Positions 50,192 through 64,000 are shown, counted from the stretch's first letter. The stretch: 64,000 bases of DNA from Roseivirga sp. (GCF_034669765.1 NZ_JAXMOQ010000007.1:75595-139594); one strand, 5' to 3'. The notes: generated by a model not told the origin, from the sequence alone. Numbers and translations are program-made.

Positions 50192-50263
50192 GGTCCCGTA
50201 GTTCAACGGATAGAATAGAAGTTTCCTAAACTTTAGATACAAGTTCGATTCTTGTCGGGATCA
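50192..50263 (+). tRNA. tRNA-Arg (anticodon CCT)
   Basis: Acceptor GGTCCCG/CGGGATC; D arm; anticodon arm GAAGT-TTCCTAA-ACTTT; GTTCGATTC T loop; CCA not encoded. Confidence 0.95.
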
Positions 50264-50296
50264 CACTTAACACTAACTAACAAGTGTAAACAAGAG

Positions 50297-50325
50297 ATAA
50301 GCCACTGAATAACAGTGGCTTATTT
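50297..50325 (+). terminator. Hairpin after the tRNA (terminator or attachment-site palindrome)
   Basis: ATAAGCCACTG-AATAA-CAGTGGCTTAT. Confidence 0.6.
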
Positions 50326-50376
50326 GGTGTTAAGGCATGTTAGTTCTCTTGTCCTATCTTGTTAATTCCCGTAAAT

Positions 50377-50398
50377 TGTTATCCAAAATGTTATACAA
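50377..50398 (+). repeat. Tandem direct repeat, candidate integrase arm-type sites
   Basis: TGTTATCCAA-AA-TGTTATACAA immediately before the int ATG. Confidence 0.5.
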
Positions 50399-50400
50399 CT

Positions 50401-51588
50401 ATGGGAGTTTCATTCAAGCCGATTTTCAACCGAAACAAAACTAAAACCAAGAGCAATCTCTACACTATTCACCTACGGGTGACAATCGATAGGGAGATCC
50501 GGTTCTTTAATCCCAACCTTCCCAAACTAGAAAGTAAATATTGGCAAGGGAGAGAAAACAAATGGGTGAAGGATAGCCATCCGCAAAACCATTTGTTTAA
50601 CAAAGCGCTTATGGACCGAATGCAAGAACTCCAAGAGTACGTAAACAAGCTGTACTTTCTCGATCGTCCAGTAACTTTCCGGCAGCTGTCCGAATTTTTT
50701 GAAAGAAAGGGAGACAAGGAATCTTTCAATGATTATATAGATCACTATTTGAAGATCATCAAGTTTAAATCACCGAACACCCGTAAGAAGTACAATACCT
50801 TCAAGAAGCATATCAAAGAGTTCAATCCAAAAATCAAGTTTAAAGAGTTGGGGGAAGGTCTCATTTTAGAGTACCGGGACTTTCTTTTAAATAAAGGACT
50901 GGTGGGCTCAACCGTAACCAAGTACTTTGATCCATTTAAGAAGATTGCCAGGCATGCTCTTAAAAACGATTATTTAATTCGTGATCCATTTTTTGAGGTC
51001 AAGCTGGAGGTGCCAGTTTCAGTGGTGAAAAGAACAGCTCTTACCATATCAGAAATTGAAGCATTGGTAAACCTTAAGTTCGAGAAAAAGGAAGAACAAT
51101 ATTTAGAGCTGCACCGAGACCTGTTTGTCTTTCAGTGTTTAACTGGGCTATACTATAGTGATGTACGTGGCTTAACGGCCGAGAATTTTATCAATTCTGA
51201 AGCTGGGCTATTACTGGTAAGTGAAAGGTTTAAAAATGGCTACCGCTATATTGTGCCTTTGTACAAGTTTCCAGAAGCAATCAGGCTTTTGAATAAGTAC
51301 AAAGCTGAAGATTCTCCCTTGGTATTTCCAACAGTTGTAGACCAGGCATTTAACAGAGCACTCAAAATAATTGGCCCAATGGCCAAAATAGAAAAGGTGC
51401 TTTATAACAAGGTTGGTCGCCATACATTTTGTGAACTGTTAATATCAAAGGGCTATCCAAGGGAATACGTGGCCAAAATGGCTGGCCACCAAAATTCAAA
51501 AACGACAAAGACTTATTTTGATATAAGCACAAGCCACTTTATTAATGAGCTGAATGGGTTTGGAGCAGTTGAGTTTAAAACTGAATAA
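50401..51588 (+). CDS. int: Tyrosine recombinase/integrase (arm-binding + SAM-like + catalytic domains)
   Basis: N-terminal IHLRVTIDRE arm domain; FQCLTGLYYSD, KVGRHTF, MAGH...TT..Y; ATG 50401 preferred. Confidence 0.92.
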   Translation: MGVSFKPIFNRNKTKTKSNLYTIHLRVTIDREIRFFNPNLPKLESKYWQGRENKWVKDSHPQNHLFNKALMDRMQELQEYVNKLYFLDRPVTFRQLSEFFERKGDKESFNDYIDHYLKIIKFKSPNTRKKYNTFKKHIKEFNPKIKFKELGEGLILEYRDFLLNKGLVGSTVTKYFDPFKKIARHALKNDYLIRDPFFEVKLEVPVSVVKRTALTISEIEALVNLKFEKKEEQYLELHRDLFVFQCLTGLYYSDVRGLTAENFINSEAGLLLVSERFKNGYRYIVPLYKFPEAIRLLNKYKAEDSPLVFPTVVDQAFNRALKIIGPMAKIEKVLYNKVGRHTFCELLISKGYPREYVAKMAGHQNSKTTKTYFDISTSHFINELNGFGAVEFKTE

Positions 51589-51640
51589 TAAATGATAGCA
51601 GTTCCTTAGCCTTTTAAATGTGGAGTAGATTTTCAAGCGC

Positions 51641-52306
51641 TTATCGTTCGTTAGGGTCTACTAGTCCAAATTTTGTCTTTAATCGCTGGAAAACTCCTCC
51701 GGGCTCTGTATCCTCCTCTTTAATAGATGTTAGGGCAACCTCTTTCTCAATTTCATTGACGCCTTCAAACCCTAATTCAATAAGTTTTTTTCTGAATTTG
51801 TGGTTAAGAATAATTGACTTGAAAGTTTGATTGTCAATGGCCTGTTTAGTTTCATGTAATTCTTTAAATTCCTTTTCGAGCTTGGTGTATTCGGCTTTTT
51901 GGTGATTGACTATTTCCCAAAGTTGTTCATTCCTCTTAGTAAGCTCTCCCTCTTCAAAACTCTGCTTTAGCAATTCAACATTCTTTTTGAGTAATTCTAC
52001 AATTTCCTTCCATTGCTCATTTTCCTTCTCCAGTAGTTCGTTTTTCTTTTTTAATGCTTCAATTGTAACTTCTGATTCCTTGTCAAAAAATGGCCATTCA
52101 TCTTTGTCCTCGTTATAAAGGAGCATAAAAACAGGGGTATCAAGCTTTTTGGCAATTTCAAACAGCTTATTAAGTGTTATTTGAGAGCTTCCTCTTTCTA
52201 CTTTACCATAATTTGATTGATTTACACCAATAGCCTCAGCCATTTGGTCTTGACTCAATCCTCTAGAAACTCTTAATTCCTTAATTTTTTTCAGAACATA
52301 GTCCAT
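51641..52306 (-). CDS. XRE-family HTH repressor with C-terminal coiled coil
   Basis: KIKELRVSRGLSQDQMAEAIGVNQSNYGKVERG; ATG 52306 (alternative TTG 52312). Confidence 0.88.
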   Translation of the reverse strand: MDYVLKKIKELRVSRGLSQDQMAEAIGVNQSNYGKVERGSSQITLNKLFEIAKKLDTPVFMLLYNEDKDEWPFFDKESEVTIEALKKKNELLEKENEQWKEIVELLKKNVELLKQSFEEGELTKRNEQLWEIVNHQKAEYTKLEKEFKELHETKQAIDNQTFKSIILNHKFRKKLIELGFEGVNEIEKEVALTSIKEEDTEPGGVFQRLKTKFGLVDPNER

Positions 52307-52307
52307 T

Positions 52308-52404
52308 TTCAAATATAGTATATTTGAATGGAGACTATATTAGTTGTTCTTTAATTATTTTTTATTCAATCCCTTGCGTTTCTAATTAATTAGAAATAGT
52401 TTTG
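52308..52404. promoter_or_regulatory. Divergent switch region: two palindromes and TAnnTTTG promoter elements
   Basis: TTCAAATATA-G-TATATTTGAA (52308-52328); TTTCTAATTAATTAGAAA (52379-52396); TAGTTTTG (52397-52404). Confidence 0.65.
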
Positions 52405-52435
52405 AAATAATTAAAATAGTCTAAAAATAACTACA

Positions 52436-52714
52436 ATGGAAAATCAGTTTCTAATCATCCCTAAAAGTGAGTTTGACGAACTCAAGTTTGGACAGCAAAG
52501 AATACTCGAAGCATTACGGGCGAAGCATGATTCAACTAATACAGATCAATCCGAATACCTGACTACTAAAGAATTTATGGGCAGAGTTAAAATTGCTCGA
52601 TCGAAATTCGATGAATTAGTTGCTGATGGAAAGGTGAAAACTGTTAGGCCAAATGGAGGTAGAAAAATCTATGTGCCAGTAACTGAAGTTGCGAGGTACT
52701 TTGAGGCGGAATAA
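52436..52714 (+). CDS. Excisionase-like HTH_17 DNA-binding protein
   Basis: YLTTKEFMGRVKIARSKFDELVADGKV...GGRKIYV pattern; divergent from the repressor. Confidence 0.8.
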   Translation: MENQFLIIPKSEFDELKFGQQRILEALRAKHDSTNTDQSEYLTTKEFMGRVKIARSKFDELVADGKVKTVRPNGGRKIYVPVTEVARYFEAE

Positions 52715-52718
52715 AAAA

Positions 52719-52743
52719 GCATGGACTGCAATCCATGCCTTTT
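52719..52743 (+). terminator. Intrinsic terminator after xis
   Basis: GCATGGA-CTGCAA-TCCATGC-CTTTT. Confidence 0.65.
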
Positions 52744-52775
52744 CAATTAAGTAATCTAATTAACAAATTATAATC

Positions 52776-53147
52776 ATGACAAATCTACAAAATTCTTTGG
52801 AAAGGTTAAGAACCTTAGCCAATGACCTACCGGAAAATCAGAAAAGCGTAATTCTTGATTCTATCCAAGATATCCATAACACCTGGCGCATTAGTCATCA
52901 TGTGGAAGAACACATAGAGAGCCTGAGACAGTCTTGTATAAATAAAAACATAACTGCGAAGGGCGAAAGGACTATTCGTCATTATATGGCATTGGCCTCT
53001 AGGTTCAAAGAACAAGAACAATCGAACTTTCAAGAGTTCATTACTGCCCTTAAAAAGGAATTTGCTCTTAATGAAAAGGAGCGAGACTACTGGAAGGAAC
53101 AATTCTTAGGAATTAGGGGTGAATTATCAACCACTACTACAGAATAA
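52776..53147 (+). CDS. Hypothetical all-helical protein
   Basis: 123-aa ORF co-oriented within the rightward arm; no motif recognised. Confidence 0.6.
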   Translation: MTNLQNSLERLRTLANDLPENQKSVILDSIQDIHNTWRISHHVEEHIESLRQSCINKNITAKGERTIRHYMALASRFKEQEQSNFQEFITALKKEFALNEKERDYWKEQFLGIRGELSTTTTE

Positions 53148-53152
53148 TTATT

Positions 53153-53173
53153 AGGGGCTTGATGCCCCTTTTT
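53153..53173 (+). terminator. Intrinsic terminator before the DUF3987 gene
   Basis: AGGGGC-TTGAT-GCCCCT-TTTT. Confidence 0.65.
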
Positions 53174-53249
53174 CAAAACTTAATTTTTCAAATCAACAAC
53201 CAGTGTATGACTCCTCATACTTATTCATCACGTCCAATTCAATCTCCCC

Positions 53250-54656
53250 ATGTCCATTGAACCGAAACATGAAAGTCTTGAAACAGCTACTCTATTAGTT
53301 GAGGAAATAGAGAATCATAAGGGTGAATTAGCCAAGGTTGAGACACCACTCTTTCCTGCGCACATTTATAAAATACTTCCAAAATTTCTGAGAGAAACAT
53401 GTGCCTTTTTTGATCAAGGTAGAGATAAGGATGTATTTCTTGCGAGTACACTTACCGTATTAAGCGGCTGTATGCCTGGAGTAAAATTTCAACACGATGG
53501 GAAGACGTACTGGAATAACCTTTTCTTATTCATAATCGCTCCAGCAGCCAGCGGTAAAGGAAAAATGAATTATGGTAAATTTCTAGCCCAACCTATTCAA
53601 AGAAGATACATAAAGGAAAATGACCTGAAAAAAGAGGATTATCAATCACAGCTTTCTCTATATCGAGCAACTCCAGCTAAAGATAGACTATATTCGGCTG
53701 AACCATTAGAACCAGAATACCAATACTTATTCATTCCAGCGAATAGTAGTAGTGCCTCTTTTGTCGAGACTATGGCACGCATGCAAAGTTCCATTCTTTT
53801 TGAGTCTGAAGCCGATACATTAGGCAATACGCTAAAGCAAGATTGGTCTGGGTATAGTGATGTGTTGAGAAAGGCTTTTGAGCATGAAACACATTCTCAA
53901 AACCGAAAGGGACCGGGTAATTATAAAGAAATTGAAGACCCTTGCCTTTCGGTAGCATTGAGCGGTACACCTGGGCAGTTAAGGGGGATTATCCCAAACT
54001 CTGAAGATGGTTTATTCAGTCGGTTTATGTTCTATTACTTCGATGGGGATGAAGAGTTTAGGAACGTCTTTGGCAGTAAATCAAAACCAATACCCTATAG
54101 TGATCAATTAGAGCCTTATTCAAAGGAATTATTACAGATTTATGAAAAGTGCGAAAAATGGGGTGAGGTACGTTTTTCGTGGAAACCAGATCAGGAGAAT
54201 CAATTACAGGACTTATACGAGAAATTGACTAAGTATTATGTCCGATCGTTTGGCTCAGATGTCAAGAGTATCATATTCAGATCAGCAATAATTATTACCC
54301 GAATAGCCTCAATACTAACCGTTCTGCGCACTTGGGAGCGTCAAGACTATTCTAACAACCAACAAGTATGTTCAGGAAAGGACTTTGATATTGCTGTAGC
54401 GTTAGCAGAAACATTCATTGAGCATTCAATGAAAATGCATTCTCATCTTTTGAAAAGAGACCCAACGGATGTATTTCCTCTTAAGAAAAAACAATTCTTT
54501 TTAGCCCTTCCTGATTCTTTTGAAACCAACGAGGCTGAAAGAATAGGCGATGAGCACAGTATCAAGGACAGAACAGTTCGAAAATATTTAAGAGACTGGG
54601 ATATTAATGGACTGCTAGTAAAACTTGATCAAGGAAAATATGAAAAGGCAACATAA
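53250..54656 (+). CDS. DUF3987 P-loop helicase-like replication protein with C-terminal winged helix
   Basis: NLFLFIIAPAASGKG (Walker A), FESEADTL (Walker B), LSVALSGTPGQ, DGLFSRF. Confidence 0.85.
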   Translation: MSIEPKHESLETATLLVEEIENHKGELAKVETPLFPAHIYKILPKFLRETCAFFDQGRDKDVFLASTLTVLSGCMPGVKFQHDGKTYWNNLFLFIIAPAASGKGKMNYGKFLAQPIQRRYIKENDLKKEDYQSQLSLYRATPAKDRLYSAEPLEPEYQYLFIPANSSSASFVETMARMQSSILFESEADTLGNTLKQDWSGYSDVLRKAFEHETHSQNRKGPGNYKEIEDPCLSVALSGTPGQLRGIIPNSEDGLFSRFMFYYFDGDEEFRNVFGSKSKPIPYSDQLEPYSKELLQIYEKCEKWGEVRFSWKPDQENQLQDLYEKLTKYYVRSFGSDVKSIIFRSAIIITRIASILTVLRTWERQDYSNNQQVCSGKDFDIAVALAETFIEHSMKMHSHLLKRDPTDVFPLKKKQFFLALPDSFETNEAERIGDEHSIKDRTVRKYLRDWDINGLLVKLDQGKYEKAT

Positions 54657-54775
54657 CGTGCCGTGTGCCTTTTGTGCCGTTCATACCGCAATTGTGATAA
54701 AACGGCACGAAAGGCATGGACGGCATCTTTAAAATTTAGAAAAAGGCATAAAAGGCACGAATGGCACACGGCACG
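54647..54775. repeat. Iteron-like GGCA repeat cluster with inverted arms (candidate origin)
   Basis: CGTGCCGTGTGCC (54657-54669) / GGCACACGGCACG (54763-54775); GTGCCGTT/AACGGCAC; about 11 GGCA/TGCC units. Confidence 0.8.
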
Positions 54776-54780
54776 ATAAA

Positions 54781-55824
54781 ATGAAATTTATAAATCCATC
54801 ATATCAACTTGAACCAGGAAGTAAGAAGCACATTTGCCCCAGCCCTAGCTGTGGTAAAAAGCGCTTTGTCCGATATGTAGAAAAAGCAACTGGAGACTAT
54901 CTGCCTGAGCAGTACGGCCGCTGTGATCGTGAAGCTAATTGTGGTTACCATCTCAACCCATACAAAGACGGTTATGTAATTAAAGATCAAGACCTTCAGG
55001 GCGGAAAGGTTAATGTAGGTATGGGTAAATCAACCCCCGTTCTCCCGTTCGCGAAGGCGTTCGTTCCTTTTTCTGTGCTTCAGCTAACGCTATTAGCAAA
55101 CGGATATAAACGCAACATATTCATCCAAAACCTTCTGAAAAACATTCCTTTCCCCTTCTCTGAGAAGGATGTGGAGAAAGTAATAGAGCTTTATTACCTC
55201 GGTACATTAAACAAAGGCTATCTGTCGGGTGCACTTACAATTCCCTACATAGATCGTTCGGGGAACGTTCGGGCTGTTCAGGTAAAAACCTTTGATGAAC
55301 AGAACCACACTATTAAAACAAACTTCCTGCATTCCATTGCTGAAAAGCATTACCTAAAACAGGGACATGAAATGCCAAAATGGCTAAAGGATTACTTAAA
55401 GAACGAATCAAAGGTATCATGCCTGTTCGGTGAACATTTACTAGATAAGTATCCGGATAATCCGATAGCACTTGTAGAGGCTCCTAAAACGGCAATCTAC
55501 TCAACGCTGTACTTTGGGTTACCTGATCAACCCGATAACTTTCTTTGGTTGGCAGTTTTTAACCTCAGCAGCTTAAAGCTGGAGAAGTGCAAAGTACTGA
55601 AAGGGCGTAGGATAATACTCTTTCCGGATCTATCTAAAACGGGCAATGCCTTCAAATTGTGGAGTAACAAGGCTGTAGAATTTGAAAAAGAAATGCCAGG
55701 TACCACGTTCACCGTTTCAGATTTGCTTGAACGCAATGCGAACGATCAAGAACGAGAAGCAGGTTTAGATTTAGCTGATTATTTGATAAAGCTAGACTGG
55801 AGAGCGTTCAAAATGGACAAATAA
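54781..55824 (+). CDS. DUF6371 protein with N-terminal Zn ribbon and Toprim-like domain (primase-like)
   Basis: CPSPSCGKKRF...GRCDREANCGYH; CLFGEHLL, IALVEAPKTA, LFPDL, DLADY motifs. Confidence 0.8.
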   Translation: MKFINPSYQLEPGSKKHICPSPSCGKKRFVRYVEKATGDYLPEQYGRCDREANCGYHLNPYKDGYVIKDQDLQGGKVNVGMGKSTPVLPFAKAFVPFSVLQLTLLANGYKRNIFIQNLLKNIPFPFSEKDVEKVIELYYLGTLNKGYLSGALTIPYIDRSGNVRAVQVKTFDEQNHTIKTNFLHSIAEKHYLKQGHEMPKWLKDYLKNESKVSCLFGEHLLDKYPDNPIALVEAPKTAIYSTLYFGLPDQPDNFLWLAVFNLSSLKLEKCKVLKGRRIILFPDLSKTGNAFKLWSNKAVEFEKEMPGTTFTVSDLLERNANDQEREAGLDLADYLIKLDWRAFKMDK

Positions 55825-55859
55825 CTCCTCAGCAAGTGAATTCACCTATTAAAAGTAGT

Positions 55860-55990
55860 TTACGCCATTCCGTTTTTAACACATAGTCAAGCCGTTTTAT
55901 CACGTTTGTGCCGTTTGCGAACGGCACAATAGGCCATTACAAGGCGTTGCAAGCGCCAATGGTGGCCGTTTCAGCCGTTTGAAAACGGCA
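55860..55990. repeat. Second palindrome-rich cluster
   Basis: TTGTGCCGTT-TGCG-AACGGCACAA (55906-55929); GCCGTTT-GA-AAACGGC (55974-55989); several GCCGTT. Confidence 0.75.
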
Positions 55991-56090
55991 GTTACCTCAC
56001 ATGGCGTATTGTAATTTGATTTGTCTTTTAGGTACATAATAATCCTACTGATGACAGTTTTATAGTACTTTAATACACGTTATGGAGCAT

Positions 56091-57065
56091 TCACTTATTT
56101 CTAATCATCAAACCGATAGTCCAAATTGGTTTTTGATCTTTCATGAATATTGTTGAGGCTCTAAACCCTAAAGGTAGGCCAGGAATTGGAACTGTAATAC
56201 CCATGTTTGCACCTGATAATTTTCTCTTACGCTCCCCAGTCAATTGTTCATAAAGCCCCTCATTAAATCCTGTTTGAAATAGCCCAATAAATAATTGGAC
56301 AGGCTTCTTAGCTTGGCTGTCATTATTCAAAGAGAGTCCCTCAAATTCAATTCCCGCATTGAATATTGATTGGCTAAAGTTCAATTGTTCATCATTTGTG
56401 CCTTCATTTAAACTCATATACTTGAAGCCCACATTGGCATATGTGTATAATTGGTAAGCATCATTGGCTAAGGTTCCCTTCTTAATTATATATGTTGGGG
56501 TAAGTGCAATACTCACTCCTCTTGATCCCTGAACCAAAGCATTTATATTTTTTTCAGTGTCTACTGAGATTTCAGAAGCAATATTCGATATGTTGCCTGT
56601 GAGATATAAAATGAACTTGTCTGATATAATATTGAAATCACCAATTTGAATCGGTGCAGAACCGACAAAATTTTCAATATTACCATCTCCGACAAAATTA
56701 TATGAGGCTTCTGCTCCATACCAAAAACTTACGGGAGAACTACCGCTTGCAGTAACTACTACTTCTTCTCCAATGTCATCTGCATCTAATGGTGTAAGAC
56801 TAACTGTCAAAAAATCCGAATTTATTTCAACATATTGAGTACTAAACCCTATGTAGGTAAATTTGAGTGTGTTAAATCCTTCAGGAATTGTAATACTGAA
56901 CTTACCATCAATATCAGTAGAAGTTTCTGATTGAGTGCCTGGAACTAATACTGAGACACCAGGTAAAGGACTACCTGGCTCAATTTGAACAATGCCATTA
57001 ACAATTTTTTGAGCAAATATTAGGTTTGATAAACACAGCATTAAAAGTATGATAATGTATTTCAT
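56091..57065 (-). CDS. Exported protein: SusC-type N-terminal carboxypeptidase-regulatory-like domain fused to a short beta-rich domain
   Basis: Signal peptide; PLPGVSVLV.GT...TSTDIDGKFSI...L.F.YIGF; EEVVVT; only 324 aa. Confidence 0.75.
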   Translation of the reverse strand: MKYIIILLMLCLSNLIFAQKIVNGIVQIEPGSPLPGVSVLVPGTQSETSTDIDGKFSITIPEGFNTLKFTYIGFSTQYVEINSDFLTVSLTPLDADDIGEEVVVTASGSSPVSFWYGAEASYNFVGDGNIENFVGSAPIQIGDFNIISDKFILYLTGNISNIASEISVDTEKNINALVQGSRGVSIALTPTYIIKKGTLANDAYQLYTYANVGFKYMSLNEGTNDEQLNFSQSIFNAGIEFEGLSLNNDSQAKKPVQLFIGLFQTGFNEGLYEQLTGERKRKLSGANMGITVPIPGLPLGFRASTIFMKDQKPIWTIGLMIRNK

Positions 57066-57229
57066 GATAAAGATGGTTTAGTGAAATCAGTGAATACTAC
57101 AAGTACATATGACAGTAATGTAATAATAATAGTGTGGTATTTGGCTATTATTATTTAATAATGTTCCGTTGTGAGAGTTTTAATCGGTTAACCATAGTTT
57201 ACTTAGAAACTTTAAGCGATTTGGATTAA

Positions 57230-57329
57230 GCCGTTGCAGGTATTTTAGCCGTTTGGAAACTGCAGCTTTGGGGCGTTCGTTAGGCGTTCGCGAACGCCAT
57301 GGTCAAGTCGTTCGGGACGTTCGCAAACG
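57230..57329. repeat. Third palindrome-rich cluster
   Basis: GGCGTTCGCGAACGCC perfect 16-mer (57283-57298); CGTTCG x4; CGTTCGCAAACG (57318-57329). Confidence 0.75.
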
Positions 57330-57646
57330 GGGTTTAATCAAAATAATTTGAGTCACAGGGATTTCTTTGTAGAATCGCTTATGTCATTAGATGTTACAGG
57401 TTCACACCAGACTACGTTTGAAATGAACGACTCAGTCTGAACGGATTGGGTTAAGTATCGCCAGAAATGGAATAACGTTTTAATGTTTATTGTTTTTGAC
57501 CCAATTGACGGCCATTATCCATTCTACCTGAATGATGTGAAGGATCGGAAAGAACTGTATGAGGCCTACGAGTCCTATCTACCACAACCCAAGGAAACCA
57601 TACTAGAAGAGAGGGACGTAAAGTCAAATACCAGGATAAACTAAGG

Positions 57647-58066
57647 CTATTCTGGCTTGTGATGACCTTTGCTCAGGTACTTGAATATTTTCTCCTTCCT
57701 ATATTTATCAGCCCAAAACCGATCTACTAAGCCAGGGAAGCATTTGAATATTTTTTCAAACTGCTCTCCAGATCTACTGGTGAAAATATGAGATGTACCT
57801 TTGTCACTGGTTGCCTTTACAATTATCTCAATTTTTTCGAATTTGGGATGATAGGAGTTGGAGAGGTTAAATTCTACATGAATATCTTCTAAAAAGGCAT
57901 TATGATCATCCTTATCAATCAACTGCTTAGCGCTATGATCTGTCTGAAACCACCAGCCCTGTTTCGTTTTCCAGATTTTAAGAAAATGGTGGATGGATTC
58001 TAGCCCATGTCTTCTTAACTGCACAATATATTTACCCGCTTCAACCTTCATAGAACAAAGTAACAA
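57647..58066 (-). CDS. Hypothetical protein (likely start MKVEAG at 58051)
   Basis: Open frame co-oriented downstream of SRAP; no motif recognised. Confidence 0.55.
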   Translation of the reverse strand: MLLCSMKVEAGKYIVQLRRHGLESIHHFLKIWKTKQGWWFQTDHSAKQLIDKDDHNAFLEDIHVEFNLSNSYHPKFEKIEIIVKATSDKGTSHIFTSRSGEQFEKIFKCFPGLVDRFWADKYRKEKIFKYLSKGHHKPE

Positions 58067-58122
58067 GAAGGTAAAATAATAATCAAATTAGTAATGAACT
58101 AAATATATTAGTTTTCACTAAT

Positions 58123-58959
58123 TCAGAATAAACTGCCTTGTTCAAATGATTGAGCATAATGTTTCCACCCTCCTTTTAACGCCTCGTATTCCATTGGTTC
58201 TAACACTTCTGGAATGTTGGCATTCGCGGTTTTAGCCTTTAATCCTTGTCGTACAGGGACGGCCTTCATGCCATCACTTGGGAAAGGTTTAGCAAATTTC
58301 ATTAGTCCTTCAAGCGTTTGGCTTTCCTCTAACCAGTTACTCCACTCTTGGGGCAATAGAATTACAGGCATTCGAGAGCCGCTATGTGCATTAGGGTTAT
58401 TATGAATCACTGACATTAGCTCATTTGGCTTAGTAGTAAGTATGCTAAATGAATTGATGATTTCACCAGTATCAGTGTCGTTCCAACTGTCCCATAGGCC
58501 AGCAAATGCAAACATTGGGTGGTCTTGGAGACTAATCAAATGAGGATAGGTTTGCTTGTTATTCCTATGGTGATAGAACTCGAAAAAGCCAGTCGCTAAA
58601 ACTAAACACCTTCTTGTTTTGTAAAGCCTCTTCCATGTTGGTTTTTCAGCCATTGTTTCCATCATTGCATTGGCAGTTTTGGAATAGTAATTACCAAAGT
58701 CCCAAGGGTGCAAATGCCTCCCATCCTTTTCTATATACTTGGCAAATGGTGGTATCAGACCCCAATGGAAAAACTGTATCTCTGAAGGCTTATCTTGAGT
58801 GATTACAGGCATAGAAGGGTGCCAATCCTTGTAGGCATCCATGAAGTAAAATTGATTGCCAAAATCTAGGAGCTTTTGAATTTCGTTACCGGTTAACTTC
58901 TGGTAAAACTTATTGACCTCCATTTCCTCTTTGTAGGACATCGAATAGCTATAGCACAT
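58123..58959 (-). CDS. SOS response-associated peptidase (SRAP/HMCES/YedK family)
   Basis: N-terminal Met-Cys, WGLIPPF, RCLVLATGFFEF, FAFAGLWDSW, SFSILT, IH...RMPVIL. Confidence 0.92.
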   Translation of the reverse strand: MCYSYSMSYKEEMEVNKFYQKLTGNEIQKLLDFGNQFYFMDAYKDWHPSMPVITQDKPSEIQFFHWGLIPPFAKYIEKDGRHLHPWDFGNYYSKTANAMMETMAEKPTWKRLYKTRRCLVLATGFFEFYHHRNNKQTYPHLISLQDHPMFAFAGLWDSWNDTDTGEIINSFSILTTKPNELMSVIHNNPNAHSGSRMPVILLPQEWSNWLEESQTLEGLMKFAKPFPSDGMKAVPVRQGLKAKTANANIPEVLEPMEYEALKGGWKHYAQSFEQGSLF

Positions 58960-59072
58960 ATATCATTATTTAGCCCTTCCTGGCTTAAAAGTATACAACC
59001 AATCATAAGCATTGGCTAATAGTACTTTATTAAAAGTAGATAATAAAGGAGATAATGGAAAAAGCTTCATGG

Positions 59073-59256
59073 CCGTTTAAACGCGTTGACACCCCGTTGA
59101 TGGTGCGTTTAAACGCATTGACTCTCCGTTTAAACGCATTGACACCCCGTTGATGGTGCGTTTAAACGCATTGACAGTGCCGTTGATGGTGCGTTTAAAC
59201 GTGTGGAAAGTGCCGTTTATCTTACTATGGCAGGCTTTCATGGCGTTTGCAAACGC
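59073..59256. repeat. Tandem array with five CGTTTAAACG palindromes and a terminal GCGTTTGCAAACGC
   Basis: Copies at 59074, 59106, 59127, 59159, 59192; CGTTGATGGTG x3; (C/G)(A/G)TTGAC linkers. Confidence 0.92.
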
Positions 59257-59352
59257 AATTCTTAATCTTAAAATTGCATGAGACAAGATTGAAGAGAAAT
59301 ATCCTATTACCTCCCTGAGGTATGAGTATTCATAAGAAAGAATTAGGAACAA

Positions 59353-59380
59353 GAAAGGCTATTGTCTCCAGTAGCCTTTC
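59353..59380 (-). terminator. Terminator downstream of hsdM
   Basis: GAAAGGCTAT-N8-GTAGCCTTTC stem. Confidence 0.6.
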
Positions 59381-59412
59381 AAATTTAGATTTACTAAATG
59401 AAATATTAAGGT

Positions 59413-60942
59413 TTAATCTTCTGAGCCATTAATTGTGAGCATAATCTCCCTGAAGCTATTCAGACCAGATTCAATGTTTTCGATGATTTCATTCGCTAAA
59501 ACGTCCGGATCAGGTAAGTTGTCTAAGTCAGTTAGACTTTTGTCTTTGAGCCAAAATATATCTAAACTGGTTTTATCTCTTGATACGATTTCTTCATACG
59601 TGAATTTACGCCATCTACCATCTTCATTTTCAGCATCCCATGTTTCCAATCTCTTATTCCGGTTTTCTGACTTATATAGCTCAATAAAGTCTTCCAAATG
59701 CTGAATGGTCATCGGTGACTTCTTCGGGGTATGATGCACATTGGTTCTGTAATCGTAAAACCAAACTTCCTTGGTCCAGGCTTCTTTACTCGCAGGCTTA
59801 TTGGTAAAGAACAATACATTAGCTTTTACTCCCGGTGCGTAGAATATACCAGTAGGTAGGCGTAGAATTGTATGAAGCTCAGTTGTCTTCAGCAATTGCT
59901 TTCGAACCTCTTCACCAGCACCTCCTTCAAATAGGACGTTATCAGGCAAAACAACTGCAGCTTCTCCATTAATCCTTAGCATAGTTTTAATATGCTGCAA
60001 GAAGTTCAATTGTTTGTTTGAAGTTGTTTCCCAAAAGTCCTGACGGTTGTAGCTCATGTCTTGCTTTTCGGCTTCACCTTCTTCATTGGTGATGGTCATG
60101 CTACTCTTCTTCCCAAAAGGAGGATTGGCCAGCACATAGTCTACTCTAAAACCATCATCAGAAATCAATGCATCGGTAGACTTAATCGGAGTATCGCCAA
60201 TGATATCTCCAATATTATGGAGATACATATTCATTAAACACATTCTACGGGTATTGTCTACAATCTCATTGCCATAGAAGGTTTTATTCTTCAAGAACTC
60301 CTTTTCTTCTCTATCCAGCGAATTGTTTGCAATCACCCAATCATAAGCTGCCAAGAAGAAACCACCTGTACCACAAGCTGGATCTGCAATAGTTTTGAGT
60401 GGCTTTGGTTGAACACAGGCAACAATGGCTTTGATCAATGCTCTTGGTGTAAAGTATTGTCCTGCTCCAGAACTGCCGCTACTATCCATAGCGTTCTTTT
60501 CTAACAGCCCTTCATAGATGGTTCCTTTAATGTCGGCACCCATCATATTCCAATTCTCTTTATCAATCAAGTCGATGACTTTTAAGAGTTTGGAAGGGTC
60601 TTGAATTTTGTTCTGACTCTTGGTGAAAATCTGACCTAACATTCCTTTTTCAGTAGATAAACTACGGAGCAATTGGCTATAAAATGATTCCAGCTCAGCA
60701 CCTCTTTTGCCAGAAAGTGTTTCCCAATCACAGATTTCGCCATCAGGAATTTCATTGCCATCGACATCTTTCAGTTTGGGGAAAACAAGGCCTTTGCTGT
60801 ATGGCGGCTTATTGAGCTCGTCTGCCATTTTAAGGAACAGCAAATAGGTGATTTGCTCCAAGTAATCGCCATAGCCCACCCCATCATCACGCAATACGCC
60901 AGCGAGGTTCCAAATTTTTGAAATTATTGTAGAGTCTGTCAT
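59413..60942 (-). CDS. hsdM: Type I restriction-modification methyltransferase subunit M
   Basis: GAGQYFTPR, DPACGTGGF, NPPF, VLPDNVLF, LRLPTGIFY motifs. Confidence 0.96.
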   Translation of the reverse strand: MTDSTIISKIWNLAGVLRDDGVGYGDYLEQITYLLFLKMADELNKPPYSKGLVFPKLKDVDGNEIPDGEICDWETLSGKRGAELESFYSQLLRSLSTEKGMLGQIFTKSQNKIQDPSKLLKVIDLIDKENWNMMGADIKGTIYEGLLEKNAMDSSGSSGAGQYFTPRALIKAIVACVQPKPLKTIADPACGTGGFFLAAYDWVIANNSLDREEKEFLKNKTFYGNEIVDNTRRMCLMNMYLHNIGDIIGDTPIKSTDALISDDGFRVDYVLANPPFGKKSSMTITNEEGEAEKQDMSYNRQDFWETTSNKQLNFLQHIKTMLRINGEAAVVLPDNVLFEGGAGEEVRKQLLKTTELHTILRLPTGIFYAPGVKANVLFFTNKPASKEAWTKEVWFYDYRTNVHHTPKKSPMTIQHLEDFIELYKSENRNKRLETWDAENEDGRWRKFTYEEIVSRDKTSLDIFWLKDKSLTDLDNLPDPDVLANEIIENIESGLNSFREIMLTINGSED

Positions 60943-62399
60943 TCCTTGAACTTGTTTTTAATTTCCTTTTCCTCTGGTATATAAGCCCAATATTCTAAGT
61001 CTATTTGAATCAACTTTTTGAGCCTTTCAAAGTAGGCCTTTTCAATATCGCTCATTCGAGCAGGGCCAATAATAATTAAACGATTGCAAGTGATATCAGC
61101 ATCGAGCATTGCGTATTCAAAGATCTGACCTATTGCCTGTCTAATGTTTTTGAGAGCAGTATTGCTTGTTTTGATTTCAAATAAATCAAACTCGTCATTT
61201 TGCTTCAGTACAACATCAACAATGGCACCTCCTACACGAGTTTTTTCTACCGATATCTGTCTTTTACCGAATCCTTTTAAAATTAAGTAATCATATAGAT
61301 TATCGGTGATCTCACTATGCCTTCTTATCACCTTAGATTGCTTACCAGAAGTTGTTTTGGTATACTCACTTTGACTTGAAGCTTTACCACTCTGAAAATC
61401 AAATTTGATTTTTTTCGCAAATGATGATTTGAGTAGCACCTCTAATTCCTCAGATAAATGATATGGCATAAATCGGTTAAATTCAGGGCCATCGAGGAAA
61501 TCAACTGAAAACGGTTCATTGAATAACTCCGCTTCATTCCATTTAAATTTAATATTCGGAGAGTATTCACCTTTTCGGAAGACTCTGTAGTCAGCATTTA
61601 CACTTTTTAATTCAGCCTTCATTGTGGCATGATTCGACTCAAGCAATTGTGCGATTTTAGCTAATTCTTCTTCATACCCCTCAATTATTTCAACATTATA
61701 GAGATTGCCAACCAAACATCTTTGCTGATCGTCTCTTATTGTATAAAGTGTTATCTGGTCAATTCGTTCAGCTTTCTGTGAGAGGCCATCTACCCCTCTT
61801 ACATAACCATACTGATATCCATCTAATCTAAACCTTTCATTGAACAACCATTCCTCGTGGCCATAGCCATACTGGTTCTCGTATGCAATATTGGTATTAC
61901 CTTGATTTTCTGGACGCCAAGAGTGTCCACTTGGAGTTTCCCAATTGTTTGAATTCCAAGTTAACCGCATAATTCGCTTGTCCGGAATAGCTTTTGAACC
62001 CAACCATAATTCAGTTGCTTTTTTCTTTATTTTTTCTAAATGAACTTTTACTATTCCTTGTTGTAACTTGTATTTGAATACTTGCTGGTTGCTTAGAACT
62101 AAAATTTCTGCATCGTAATAAGATATCTTATCGAACCTCTTGACATTATAAGCACTGAATTCGCTAACTAATTCTTTATTATCATAAATAGGAATGGCAT
62201 TACTTTTAACCTTTGCGATAGCTTTCACGGAGTGCCCCTCAGCGATTAACACTATGTCATCCTGCTTATAAATCCCGTTCGATTCATAACCTATTACAAA
62301 ACTTTTTCGAATAAGTACATTGTAGAAACTAGGCTCATTCGAATCCCAATTACACCCAAGTTTCCAAAACTGGATATCGGAAAAATAACTCTCTGCCAT
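60939..62399 (-). CDS. Multidomain protein with a C-terminal PD-(D/E)XK nuclease and two uncharacterised N-terminal modules
   Basis: VEK...VDVV...LFEIKTS...IRQAIGQIFEY; middle module RLTWNSNNWETPSG...GYGHEEWLF; stop overlaps the hsdM start. Confidence 0.7.
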   Translation of the reverse strand: MAESYFSDIQFWKLGCNWDSNEPSFYNVLIRKSFVIGYESNGIYKQDDIVLIAEGHSVKAIAKVKSNAIPIYDNKELVSEFSAYNVKRFDKISYYDAEILVLSNQQVFKYKLQQGIVKVHLEKIKKKATELWLGSKAIPDKRIMRLTWNSNNWETPSGHSWRPENQGNTNIAYENQYGYGHEEWLFNERFRLDGYQYGYVRGVDGLSQKAERIDQITLYTIRDDQQRCLVGNLYNVEIIEGYEEELAKIAQLLESNHATMKAELKSVNADYRVFRKGEYSPNIKFKWNEAELFNEPFSVDFLDGPEFNRFMPYHLSEELEVLLKSSFAKKIKFDFQSGKASSQSEYTKTTSGKQSKVIRRHSEITDNLYDYLILKGFGKRQISVEKTRVGGAIVDVVLKQNDEFDLFEIKTSNTALKNIRQAIGQIFEYAMLDADITCNRLIIIGPARMSDIEKAYFERLKKLIQIDLEYWAYIPEEKEIKNKFKE

Positions 62400-62430
62400 C
62401 CTTAATCTAAGTTTTAATTTTTATTCCAAT

Positions 62431-63363
62431 TTAACTCTTCACCTGAAGGGTAAACTGCTTATCCAATCGGATTATTAATTGTCTGCCTTTCGACAGCTTC
62501 ATGAATTCTGAATGGTTAGATAACACTCTGGCCAAATCCCTTGCAACGGCACTTCCACTAATGTTATTAGCTACTTGGCCATTGTTTAATTCTAGGTTAA
62601 ACGTATAGGATTTCCGGTTTCCGACTGCGGCAAAAGGAGCTTTTCCGATATAAATATCGGTTGATCTACCTTCCTTAAGAGCATCTAATATTGTTGGAAT
62701 CACTTGTTTCCAAATGTCTTCGTATTTGTGTACATCCGCTGATATAGCCCTTGGTGCTGTTGCTTTAACAATTTTCTTTTTCGGGCTAGGGTCACTATGA
62801 GGATCGCCATAAGCGATCATTCCTGTTTCTTTCCGTAACGCACTGATGATTGACTTAGATGGATTACCTTGATTCTTTCGATCGATGTTCAACAATGGCA
62901 CTTGCATCTGAATAAGACGCGTTTCTAGTTCATCGAGTGCTGACAAAGAACCATTGTGCTCATGGAAAGACAAAGCTAAGTTCGCTCTCATCCATTGGCT
63001 CAACTTTTTCTCTGATGCTTCATCAAACTTGTAATGGCTTGTTCGCTTTTTCTCTATGTCAGCAAGCCCTCTTGGAATTGGTATAAGGTTGAGGCTCTTC
63101 CTAAGCATAGCGCCAAAGCTTCTTCGTAGGGTAGAGCTGCCTGTTTTGCCATCGGCAAAGTGTGTATCACGATCCCGAGAGGCTTGGCTCGATTCTGTTT
63201 TACCGATGTAGATAATTTGATCCTGTTTGGGCTTGCAGTTTTCCAAAGGAAAATCCGATCCAATGAAAAAGAGGGCATATATCCCCGGTTTATTGGAAAA
63301 TGAGTTAATCTCTTCATAGGGTGTTTTTTGCCCGACTAAGTGAGTGATGATGTCTAGACTCAT
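62431..63363 (-). CDS. GIY-YIG nuclease fused to an unassigned C-terminal domain
   Basis: KPGIYALF...IIYIGKTE, STLRR, ELETRLI...PLLN; C-terminal GNRKSYTFNLE...SAVARDLARVL. Confidence 0.78.
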   Translation of the reverse strand: MSLDIITHLVGQKTPYEEINSFSNKPGIYALFFIGSDFPLENCKPKQDQIIYIGKTESSQASRDRDTHFADGKTGSSTLRRSFGAMLRKSLNLIPIPRGLADIEKKRTSHYKFDEASEKKLSQWMRANLALSFHEHNGSLSALDELETRLIQMQVPLLNIDRKNQGNPSKSIISALRKETGMIAYGDPHSDPSPKKKIVKATAPRAISADVHKYEDIWKQVIPTILDALKEGRSTDIYIGKAPFAAVGNRKSYTFNLELNNGQVANNISGSAVARDLARVLSNHSEFMKLSKGRQLIIRLDKQFTLQVKS

Positions 63364-64000
63364 GATTTCTCCTTTTTGATTTTCGCTAATAAAACCGAAG
63401 CCGGCTCATAATCCTCTGCCTGCTTGCATTTGGCTATTTCTGCTGTGGAAAGCAACGTGCCTTCAAAGGCTTTTTTTAGAATGCTTTGGCGTAGTGCTTT
63501 GGCTTTTTCTAAGCTCTCGGTAATGCTTTCCTCTACCTTATAGCATACAGAAAGGCGAGATTCGATTTCTTTTAATATTTGGTGTTGTTCTTCAATTGGA
63601 GGAATAGGAATCGGAATTTCCTTTAATTCAGCCATACCGACCATATTGGGCATCGCAGAACCTAATGATTTTTGAAAAATTAATCTCTGAAATGATCCTG
63701 ATCTAAATAGTTGAATGAAATAACGCTTTAACATAATAGACTCATCCATATCTATTTTTAGCAGGGCTTGATTAATTACTCCTATATCAGCATCTTCAGG
63801 TAATAGACAAATTCGACCAAGAGTTACTCCGGAGCAGCTTATTATCATGTCTCCTGCCTTTGTTTCAAAAGCTTTTAGTTCTTTGAATTTTTCGTTTGTT
63901 ATGTAATATCTATGGCGATATGGTTCATCATTAATAGCGTGTCCTTGCTCATAAACTACAATGCCTTTTTCGACAAAGAATTCCTTTTTCAAAGCACTGC
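63360..64000 (-). CDS. hsdS: Type I RM specificity subunit S, partial (5' part outside the window)
   Basis: Frame open to the window edge (SALKKEFF..G..VYEQ); GDMIISCSGVTLG, PIPIPPIEEQ..I, LRQSILKKAFEG. Confidence 0.93.
   Translation of the reverse strand, partial: SALKKEFFVEKGIVVYEQGHAINDEPYRHRYYITNEKFKELKAFETKAGDMIISCSGVTLGRICLLPEDADIGVINQALLKIDMDESIMLKRYFIQLFRSGSFQRLIFQKSLGSAMPNMVGMAELKEIPIPIPPIEEQHQILKEIESRLSVCYKVEESITESLEKAKALRQSILKKAFEGTLLSTAEIAKCKQAEDYEPASVLLAKIKKEKS

Follow-up and report, generated by a model that had tools for sequence, protein, structure and literature searches.

A probable helper-dependent, relaxase-less defence island of the Tn4555/NBU type at tRNA-Arg(CCT) of a marine Roseivirga

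We analyzed a mobile island that lies in the 3' end of a tRNA-Arg(CCT) gene of a Roseivirga-type marine Cytophagales bacterium. The DNA examined, here called the window, is a 64,000-nucleotide stretch of Roseivirga sp. (GCF_034669765.1, NZ_JAXMOQ010000007.1:75595-139594), which is C7:75595-139594 of a 243-kb contig on which the element can be traced to its right end. The island spans 27,060 bp and is likely a relaxase-less element of the Tn4555/NBU type that excises, replicates itself and carries defence genes, and because it encodes no transfer function of its own, it would depend on a helper to move. Its left 5.6 kb form an integration-replication backbone, which combines intact recombination genes and sites with a module of helicase, primase and iterons whose homologue is found in Tn4555/NBU elements, and the other 21 kb are cargo that is rich in defence genes and quickly exchanged. 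The backbone itself is already known; what is new here is a relaxase-less, integrative-replicative defence island of this type.

Precise insertion, recombination and control genes

The integration target and the left attachment site are the following.

50192..50264, forward strand: tRNA-Arg(CCT), integration target (ARAGORN; Rfam tRNA, 64 bits)
50250..50264, no strand: attL core, the 15 bp TCTTGTCGGGATCAC, equal to the 3' end of the tRNA (crossover placed by alignment with empty sites)

This tRNA is the only one in the window. Its identical 15-bp counterpart, attR, is at L002:13310-13324, corresponding to 77310-77324 in window numbering, which puts the end of the island 13.3 kb past the window edge, with the chromosomal dinB gene adjoining attR on its far side. 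The 15-mer TCTTGTCGGGATCAC recurs once in the next 120 kb, where the chance expectation is ~1e-4. Two genomes of the same genus, G014 and G028, the latter being the closest relative with 94% identity in the flank, carry the exact empty site: in both, the tRNA directly abuts the DNA that is found to the right of attR in the island genome, and in the four-way alignment the crossover falls exactly at the 15-mer. These empty sites prove a precise insertion of 27,060 bp with both attL and attR intact. GC content does not distinguish the island from its surroundings.

The backbone opens with the genes for recombination and its control.

50359..51588, forward strand: tyrosine integrase (Pfam Arm-DNA-bind_5, Phage_int_SAM_5, Phage_integrase)
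51641..52312, reverse strand: XRE-family repressor candidate (Pfam HTH_3, E 1e-13)
52313..52435, no strand: divergent promoter/operator region between the XRE gene and the xis operon (inverted repeats)
52436..52714, forward strand: HTH_17 excisionase-like protein, 92 aa (Pfam HTH_17, E 1.6e-5)
52776..53147, forward strand: 123-aa helical open reading frame (ORF), in the place of the ~100-aa 'c7' gene of related elements

The most useful comparison for these genes is an element at the same tRNA-Arg in a sister species (G010; L017/L018, G010:C23:13000-47999, with the element at ~1,700-22,004 in merged coordinates). The integrase, whose start is placed at 50401 in one public gene call, is 94% identical to that of the G010 element, and in an alignment of 112 sequences it keeps the conserved K292, R354 and H377 as well as the catalytic Y386. 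The excisionase-like protein is 88% identical to its G010 counterpart and shows a weak match (E 4e-4) to a local profile of Tn4555-type Xis proteins. The 123-aa ORF is 66% identical to its counterpart and had no match in Pfam, NCBIfam or PHROG.

The XRE protein consists of an N-terminal HTH_3 domain, which is all that its PDB sequence matches span, followed by a long C-terminal coiled coil; it has no S24 peptidase domain. Its conservation with G010 is limited to the N-terminal 105 aa (55%). Since the protein lacks a self-cleaving peptidase domain, its derepression probably requires an external partner. The promoter/operator region holds two inverted repeats, a perfect 18-bp palindrome at 52379-52396 and another at 52295-52341, and it is conserved only in part in G010, consistent with a diverged repressor.

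A second HTH_17 gene lies toward the other end of the island (L002:11574-11903, reverse strand). It matches the local Tn4555-Xis profile at E 5e-26, far better than the left copy does, and may be either a leftover from another element that accreted in tandem or an antitoxin-like partner; a model for the antitoxin-like role is offered by the related element L221, where an HTH_17 gene adjoins a PIN_3 gene.

A replication module shared across Bacteroidota

The rest of the backbone comprises two replication genes, the repeats that separate them and a pair of hairpins.

53250..54656, forward strand: DUF3987 protein, predicted replicative 5'-3' helicase (Pfam DUF3987, E 1.7e-45; PHROG 'DNA helicase')
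54657..54780, no strand: iteron cluster, candidate replication origin, 124 bp (repeat analysis)
54781..55824, forward strand: Zn-ribbon and DUF6371 protein, predicted DnaG-type (Toprim) primase (Pfam Zn_ribbon_16 and DUF6371; NCBIfam PG0870_Nterm)
55903..55990, no strand: two hairpins of iteron-type TGCCGTT/AACGGCA units at the backbone-cargo junction (repeat analysis)

The DUF3987 protein carries a P-loop-like AASGKG motif, and for a member of its family, AgaPH, 5'-3' helicase activity has been shown biochemically; AgaPH acts together with a primase in a mobile element of Flavobacteriia (PMC11724360). Searches of PDB sequences gave no match for either the DUF3987 protein or the primase. The AlphaFold model of the DUF6371 protein (49 homologues, pLDDT 90.2) was more informative in that its top 21 fold matches in the PDB are all DnaG-type primases, among them the Aquifex zinc-binding and RNA-polymerase domains, the E. 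coli DnaG core, T7 gp4 and T4 gp61. The protein also has an invariant Cys4 ribbon and the acidic residues E233, D283, D330 and D333 in an E...D...DxD arrangement. By its modelled fold, the DUF6371 protein is thus a DnaG-type primase.

The iteron cluster fills the spacer between these two genes with ~12 GGCA/TGCC units, arranged as inverted blocks that flank an AT-rich patch. We compared the spacer with those of four other elements of the lineage (window 54657-54780; L017:15790-15920, from G010; L221:11408-11508; L224:11408-11519; L227:7277-7401). Units sit at the same ~12 positions in all five elements, but read GGCA in this island, L221 and L227 versus GGAA in G010 and L224, and the inverted copies are altered to match. 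Such concerted change is what one expects when a protein and its binding sites co-evolve. The repeats thus behave as iterons, and their two alleles suggest a specificity switch of the origin-binding protein. Hairpins like those at 55903..55990 are present at three places in L221.

Relatives of the primase are widespread: an alignment-based search, which was required because scans with the single protein came back empty, found 164 in IMG/VR and >579 in species-representative genomes across Bacteroidota. We surveyed their neighbourhoods by clustering ~3000 adjacent ORFs, partly with local profiles built from a few clusters. The canonical order is a double-HTH protein (in some), integrase, variable ORF, HTH_17 gene, ~100-aa ORF, helicase, DUF6371 primase, small ORFs and cargo, where the helicase is of the D5_N/DUF5906, DUF3987 or AAA_25 type.

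This order leads to a known element. CP103138.1, a 10-kb circular 'plasmid' of B. fragilis, is the circular form of Tn4555 and reads AAA ATPase, DUF6371, Mob, cfxA, HTH, Int, TnpC ('transposase') and Xis. Every one of its proteins falls in a neighbourhood cluster of DUF6371 loci, with the island integrase in the same cluster as Tn4555 Int, and the NBU-like MTnBf8 has the same gene order, ending in mobN1 (PMC13597742). Because the Tn4555 proteins all cluster with the family and MTnBf8 shares its order, the DUF3987+DUF6371 'replicon' is, as judged by homology and synteny, the known backbone of the Bacteroides mobilizable transposons Tn4555/NBU, minus Mob. The DUF3987+DUF6371 replicon named in the first-pass annotation is therefore no undescribed design. 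The inventory of the locus in that annotation holds: the tRNA-Arg(CCT), int, leftward XRE gene, xis-like gene, small ORF, helicase, repeats, primase and cargo are all recovered by ARAGORN and Pfam where it had placed them, and the layout of att-int, divergent repressor-xis, helicase-ori-primase and defence cargo is real by Pfam and repeat analysis.

Different members of the family keep different company downstream of the primase. Twenty IMG/VR loci have MobC/NikA together with a PF03432 relaxase or Mob_Pre after or near the primase, and the DUF3987 and DUF6371 pairing occurs among these relaxase-bearing relatives too. In a second class, TerS, TerL and portal genes follow the primase directly; these are real phages. 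A third and large class has neither kind of gene, apart from a few members with TerS only, namely the genome locus L153 and the circular contigs L048 (12,244 bp) and L101 (8,791 bp), which have no large terminase or portal; L048 and L101 are candidate phage satellites of Bacteroidota, and satellite-like members plausibly exist in the wider family. In the 80 closest genomic relatives, local profiles detected neither relaxase nor phage genes within 10 kb, and in five genomes that carry DUF6371 the PF03432 relaxases are mostly on other contigs.

Seven IMG/VR contigs of the family, L048, L101, L033, L035, L037, L038 and L042, assemble as circles of 4.7-12.2 kb with terminal overlaps of 114-127 bp, and one and the same gene set recurs in circularly permuted form in L035 and L036. 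Because these small relatives assemble as circles, the family forms episomes. The self-replication that had been proposed for the island is accordingly plausible: the DUF3987 helicase family, the primase model (pLDDT 90), the iterons and the circular relatives of 4.7-12 kb all point to it.

As a separate observation, 16 genome loci (L125, L128, L133, L134, L142 and L146 among them) hold relaxase-less DUF6371 elements directly downstream of mnmE, so that in distant Bacteroidota mnmE is another favoured target of the family.

Routes of transfer and the missing gene block

From this gene set we infer excision under repressor control and autonomous replication of the excised circle. The XRE protein would keep the xis-helicase-primase operon off until a factor from outside inactivates it; Int and Xis would then excise the island as a circle, and helicase and primase would load at the iterons so that the circle replicates. 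The island would thus be a 'hitcher' that has no transfer function of its own and is moved by a non-resident phage or conjugative element.

Searches for transfer and packaging genes were negative throughout. No island ORF matched a relaxase, MobC, type IV secretion system, coupling protein, terminase, portal or capsid family in Pfam, NCBIfam and/or PHROGs; local relaxase, MobC, NikA, TerL, portal and TerS profiles had no match in the six-frame translation of the island, although the relaxase, MobC and NikA profiles do recognise Tn4555 Mob; and neither the PHROG head-and-packaging set nor TerS profiles built from relatives had a match. The remark in the first-pass annotation that the window holds no capsid, terminase, relaxase or type IV secretion gene is thus borne out as far as attR beyond the window edge, and the element followed to that point has no relaxase, no tra operon and no full prophage. 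A search for oriT compared the island with the spacers between primase and mob in Tn4555 and in relaxase-bearing relatives and gave only chance-level similarity. Three genes at the right end (303, 189 and 113 aa) were considered as a possible relaxase and rejected, since none of the three matched a family, the 303-aa product carries a signal peptide and the 113-aa product is an N-terminal fragment of HsdR. Likewise, the small ORFs of the island showed no homology to TerS or Mob by PHROGs, local profiles or hhalign.

The genome, which is 99.99% complete, yielded no match to the PF03432 relaxase, PF12696 coupling protein, PF03354 TerL, PF04860 portal or PF05065 HK97 capsid in a screen that used one Pfam model per function plus local profiles and was not exhaustive; the local profiles had no match in the whole genome either. 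Since no resident relaxase, coupling-protein or prophage marker was matched, the helper, whether a phage or a conjugative element, would have to come from outside the cell.

One such helper could be an incoming conjugative transposon whose relaxase nicks the island in trans at an oriT, the island being an oriT-only hitcher. The backbone is that of Tn4555 and NBU, elements mobilized by CTnDOT-type conjugative transposons; the 20 IMG/VR loci described above carry their mobilization genes after or near the primase, and the hairpins at 55903..55990 occupy the position of Mob and oriT in relaxase-bearing relatives. Against this stand the lack of similarity to the primase-mob intergenic regions of those elements, the genome's lack of a match to the relaxase and coupling-protein models, and the absence of a relaxase within 10 kb in all 80 of the closest genomic relatives (0/80). 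The last result means that relaxase loss is therefore the rule in this branch and not an accident, and we regard mobilization by conjugation as very unlikely.

A phage satellite, the label given in the first-pass annotation, would work differently: an infecting and probably virulent phage would inactivate the XRE protein, the island would excise, replicate and be packaged in the capsids of this helper, and its cargo would shield the host from other phages. The layout of int, divergent repressor-xis, helicase-ori-primase and defence cargo resembles that of phage-inducible chromosomal islands (PICI) and P4, the island has neither a relaxase nor a recognisable oriT, and its repressor, having no autocleavage domain, calls for an external inducer. 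The same backbone is found in real phages, with TerS, TerL and portal after the primase, and in the small TerS-only elements L048, L101 (both circular) and L153, and encapsidated integrative elements have been reported from marine Flavobacteria (PMC9618062). For this copy, however, nothing positive links it to a phage. Neither the island nor its four close relatives have a TerS, packaging or capsid-related gene, including any for capsid remodelling; the terminase, portal and capsid models (three) had no match in the genome; and 27 kb exceeds the typical size of PICI or P4. The satellite label is plausible but unproven, and we consider it unlikely to apply to this island. An even bolder version, that the element represents a so far undescribed class of phage satellites which spans Bacteroidota and arose from the Tn4555/NBU backbone by relaxase loss, and in which the peptidase-less Roseivirga XRE protein with its fast-diverging C-terminal domain senses a virulent marine phage and packaging relies on DNA signals or small lineage-specific proteins and no recognisable TerS, seems more doubtful still.

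The closest relatives of the island bear on both of these ideas and on a third. Eight close relatives of the DUF3987 protein, of which two are named Roseivirga, share 66-88% identity with it; all others are at or below ~41%. Gene contexts could be obtained for four members of this lineage (L221, L224/L225, L227 and G010), and all four (4/4) have the order integrase, variable genes, HTH_17, small ORF, DUF3987, primase, a conserved block and then differing cargo, which includes Qat-like, AbiE, AbiH and toxin-antitoxin pairs. The conserved block after the primase, again in 4/4 relatives, encodes proteins of 75, 87, 217, 129 and 78 aa followed by a reverse-strand gene for 234-257 aa. In this island the primase is followed by the two hairpins and then by reverse-strand cargo, and tblastn finds no match to the six-gene block anywhere in the island's genome. 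Judging by this comparison, the present copy has lost a block that its closest relatives keep. The block proteins show no similarity to TerS, Mob or other proteins by PHROGs, local profiles or hhalign, and the AlphaFold model of the 217-aa protein (pLDDT 75) has no significant match in BFVD, its best named match being a small terminase at E 0.3. With regard to packaging, the 217-aa protein thus lacks a significant fold match and its gene is absent from this copy, which again speaks against the satellite.

The G010 element, whose cargo comprises AbiEi/AbiEii, a Qat-like set (KAP NTPase, QatB-like, QueC-like and TatD) and AbiH and has no type I restriction-modification (R-M) system, no longer has attR or the initial ~55 bp of its right flank and is probably locked in. 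Its ~75-aa small HTH gene after the primase is present in four paralogous copies within 2.5 kb (L017:11872-14358).

Another member, L223 (ERR594368, PRJEB4419), comes from a Tara Oceans virome of the <0.22 um fraction. Its DUF3987 protein is 88% identical to that of the island, and it is integrated DNA with 5 kb of host flank and not an excised unit. Host DNA with the element reaches the viral size fraction by some route, and this virome relative does not discriminate between routes.

The loss of the block raises the third idea, that the island is a stranded, domesticated defence island which is neither induced nor transferred and persists through its R-M and toxin-antitoxin cargo. The six-gene block is absent here and present in 4/4 relatives, debris at the right end (two HsdR fragments and the orphan second Xis-like gene) points to accretion and decay, the G010 relative has no attR, and all public contigs show the integrated state. 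Opposed to these are the two perfect att cores, the intact int, xis, helicase and primase ORFs with the catalytic residues of the integrase kept, and the clean empty site in the closest sister genome, because of which gain or loss must have been recent and precise. On balance, we find a fully stranded island rather unlikely, albeit a possibility to be taken seriously. Since the six-gene block is gone, however, the island may be a partly stranded derivative.

The reading that we prefer, an excising, self-replicating and helper-dependent hitcher, has to accommodate several points that weigh against it. The same element is found in public contigs only in the integrated state, and with the block gone, replication or induction may no longer work. 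The left HTH_17 protein falls under the Pfam gathering score. The candidate origin is assigned from the architecture of its repeats and their covariation, and one single switch event could account for both iteron types. Furthermore, the unannotated ORFs (123, 139, 91, 189 and 154 aa) may be relaxases or packaging proteins of unrecognised families. Beside the routes weighed above, the island may move by unspecific ones such as transformation, vesicles or generalized transduction.

Cargo, significance and known systems

The part of the cargo that lies within the window is entirely on the reverse strand.

56091-57065, reverse strand: CarboxypepD_reg-like protein (Pfam)
57647-58066, reverse strand: 139-aa ORF
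58123-58959, reverse strand: SRAP/YedK-like protein (Pfam)
59413-60942, reverse strand: hsdM of a type I R-M operon (Pfam)
60939-62399, reverse strand: 486-aa protein with no family match, nested in the R-M operon
62431-63363, reverse strand: GIY-YIG (GIY-YIG_2) protein, nested in the R-M operon (Pfam)
63360 onward, crossing the window end, reverse strand: hsdS of the type I R-M operon (Pfam)

Past the window, in order, come the rest of hsdS, a PIN_10/DUF433 pair, a WYL protein, a 1125-aa NERD-SF1 helicase and hsdR; after hsdR follow two HsdR fragments, the 303-aa signal-peptide protein, the 189-aa coiled-coil protein, the second HTH_17 gene, a SocA/Panacea pair and attR. Across the cargo, PADLOC recognised the WYL and NERD-helicase proteins alone, the helicase matching its families PDC-M16A and Mokosh-type helicases. 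It found no match in the cargo at 56091..58959 and recognised neither the 486-aa protein nor the GIY-YIG_2 protein between hsdM and hsdS. By predicted function, the 21-kb cargo is one of defence and addiction, with a type I R-M system that has nested nucleases, the NERD-SF1 helicase, and the PIN/DUF433 and SocA/Panacea pairs.

Two details of the cargo may be added. Between the SRAP and hsdM genes (window 59073-59208) lie five CGTTTAAACG-centred palindromes at spacings of 21-33 bp. The two HsdR fragments stem from another type I HsdR; one is an EcoR124_C piece and the other holds an N-terminal motif. They are in opposite orientations (L002:8691-9128, forward; L002:11128-11469, reverse) with the signal-peptide and coiled-coil proteins in between, and look like debris of older R-M cargo.

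The way in which genomic defence islands move is an open question; transfer genes are not visible in most of them. The backbone described here, well studied in Tn4555/NBU of gut Bacteroides, exists across Bacteroidota in relaxase-less form, which retains the co-evolving iteron origin along with integrase, excisionase, helicase and primase. This form serves marine Roseivirga as a swappable anti-phage platform, with type I R-M here versus AbiE, Qat-like and AbiH cargo at the same tRNA in the sister species. Since phages and small circles with TerS only have this backbone as well, the family is well suited for testing whether a mobilizable-transposon lineage can exchange conjugative for phage-mediated hitch-hiking. 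The present copy contributes little more than that family-level point.

Among known systems, Tn4555, NBU1/NBU2 and MTnBf8 are the most similar, with the same gene order and a homologous integrase, HTH_17 Xis, P-loop helicase/ATPase and Zn-ribbon/Toprim DUF6371 primase. NBU1 and NBU2 likewise integrate in the 3' end of a tRNA gene, and the circular excised form of Tn4555 is on record (CP103138.1), the island being known in its integrated form. These elements differ from the island in having their own relaxase (MobA/MobN1) with an adjacent oriT, neither of which is detectable in the island, and in using an AAA_25-type ATPase where the island has a DUF3987 helicase. They have a TnpC-like gene, whereas the island has a divergent XRE repressor and no TnpA-like double-HTH gene, and they carry an antibiotic-resistance gene in place of the 21 kb of defence cargo in a marine Cytophagales host.

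The AgaPP-AgaPH elements of Flavobacteriia (PMC11724360) resemble the island as tRNA-associated, defence-enriched integrase islands with DUF3987 in a two-protein replication kit; their authors derive them from a replicative mobile element and state no transfer route. In those elements, a BT4734-like PrimPol of the archaeo-eukaryotic primase type lies upstream of a PriCT-DUF3987 fusion and prokaryotic Argonaute (pAgo) is present, whereas in the island a DUF3987 protein that lacks PriCT comes first and the DnaG-type DUF6371 primase lies downstream of it, and there is no pAgo.

PICI/SaPI and P4, as defined for SatelliteFinder (PMC10085698; a paper whose text does not mention Bacteroidota), share with the island an integrase, a repressor divergent from the xis/replication operon, a primase-helicase by an iteron origin, defence genes and the lack of virion genes. 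The island differs in having no genes of the TerS, Ppi, Cpm, Psu, Sid or Delta type, in its length of 27 kb and in having no known helper, and its proteins are not homologous to the core genes of PICI or P4: the P4 core psu, delta, sid, eps and alpha (a D5-type primase-helicase) had no PHROG or Pfam match in it, the D5_N/DUF5906 helicases of the family being confined to sister elements. The VEIMEs of marine plankton (PMC9618062) and PICMI (PMC10803314) are similar in their marine hosts and their integrase, excisionase and primase/helicase genes. VEIMEs are small, some are integrated in Flavobacteria, and they often have no recognisable packaging genes (PMC9618062); they are defined by their presence inside virions, whereas the island is larger and its lineage is seen only in the integrated state.

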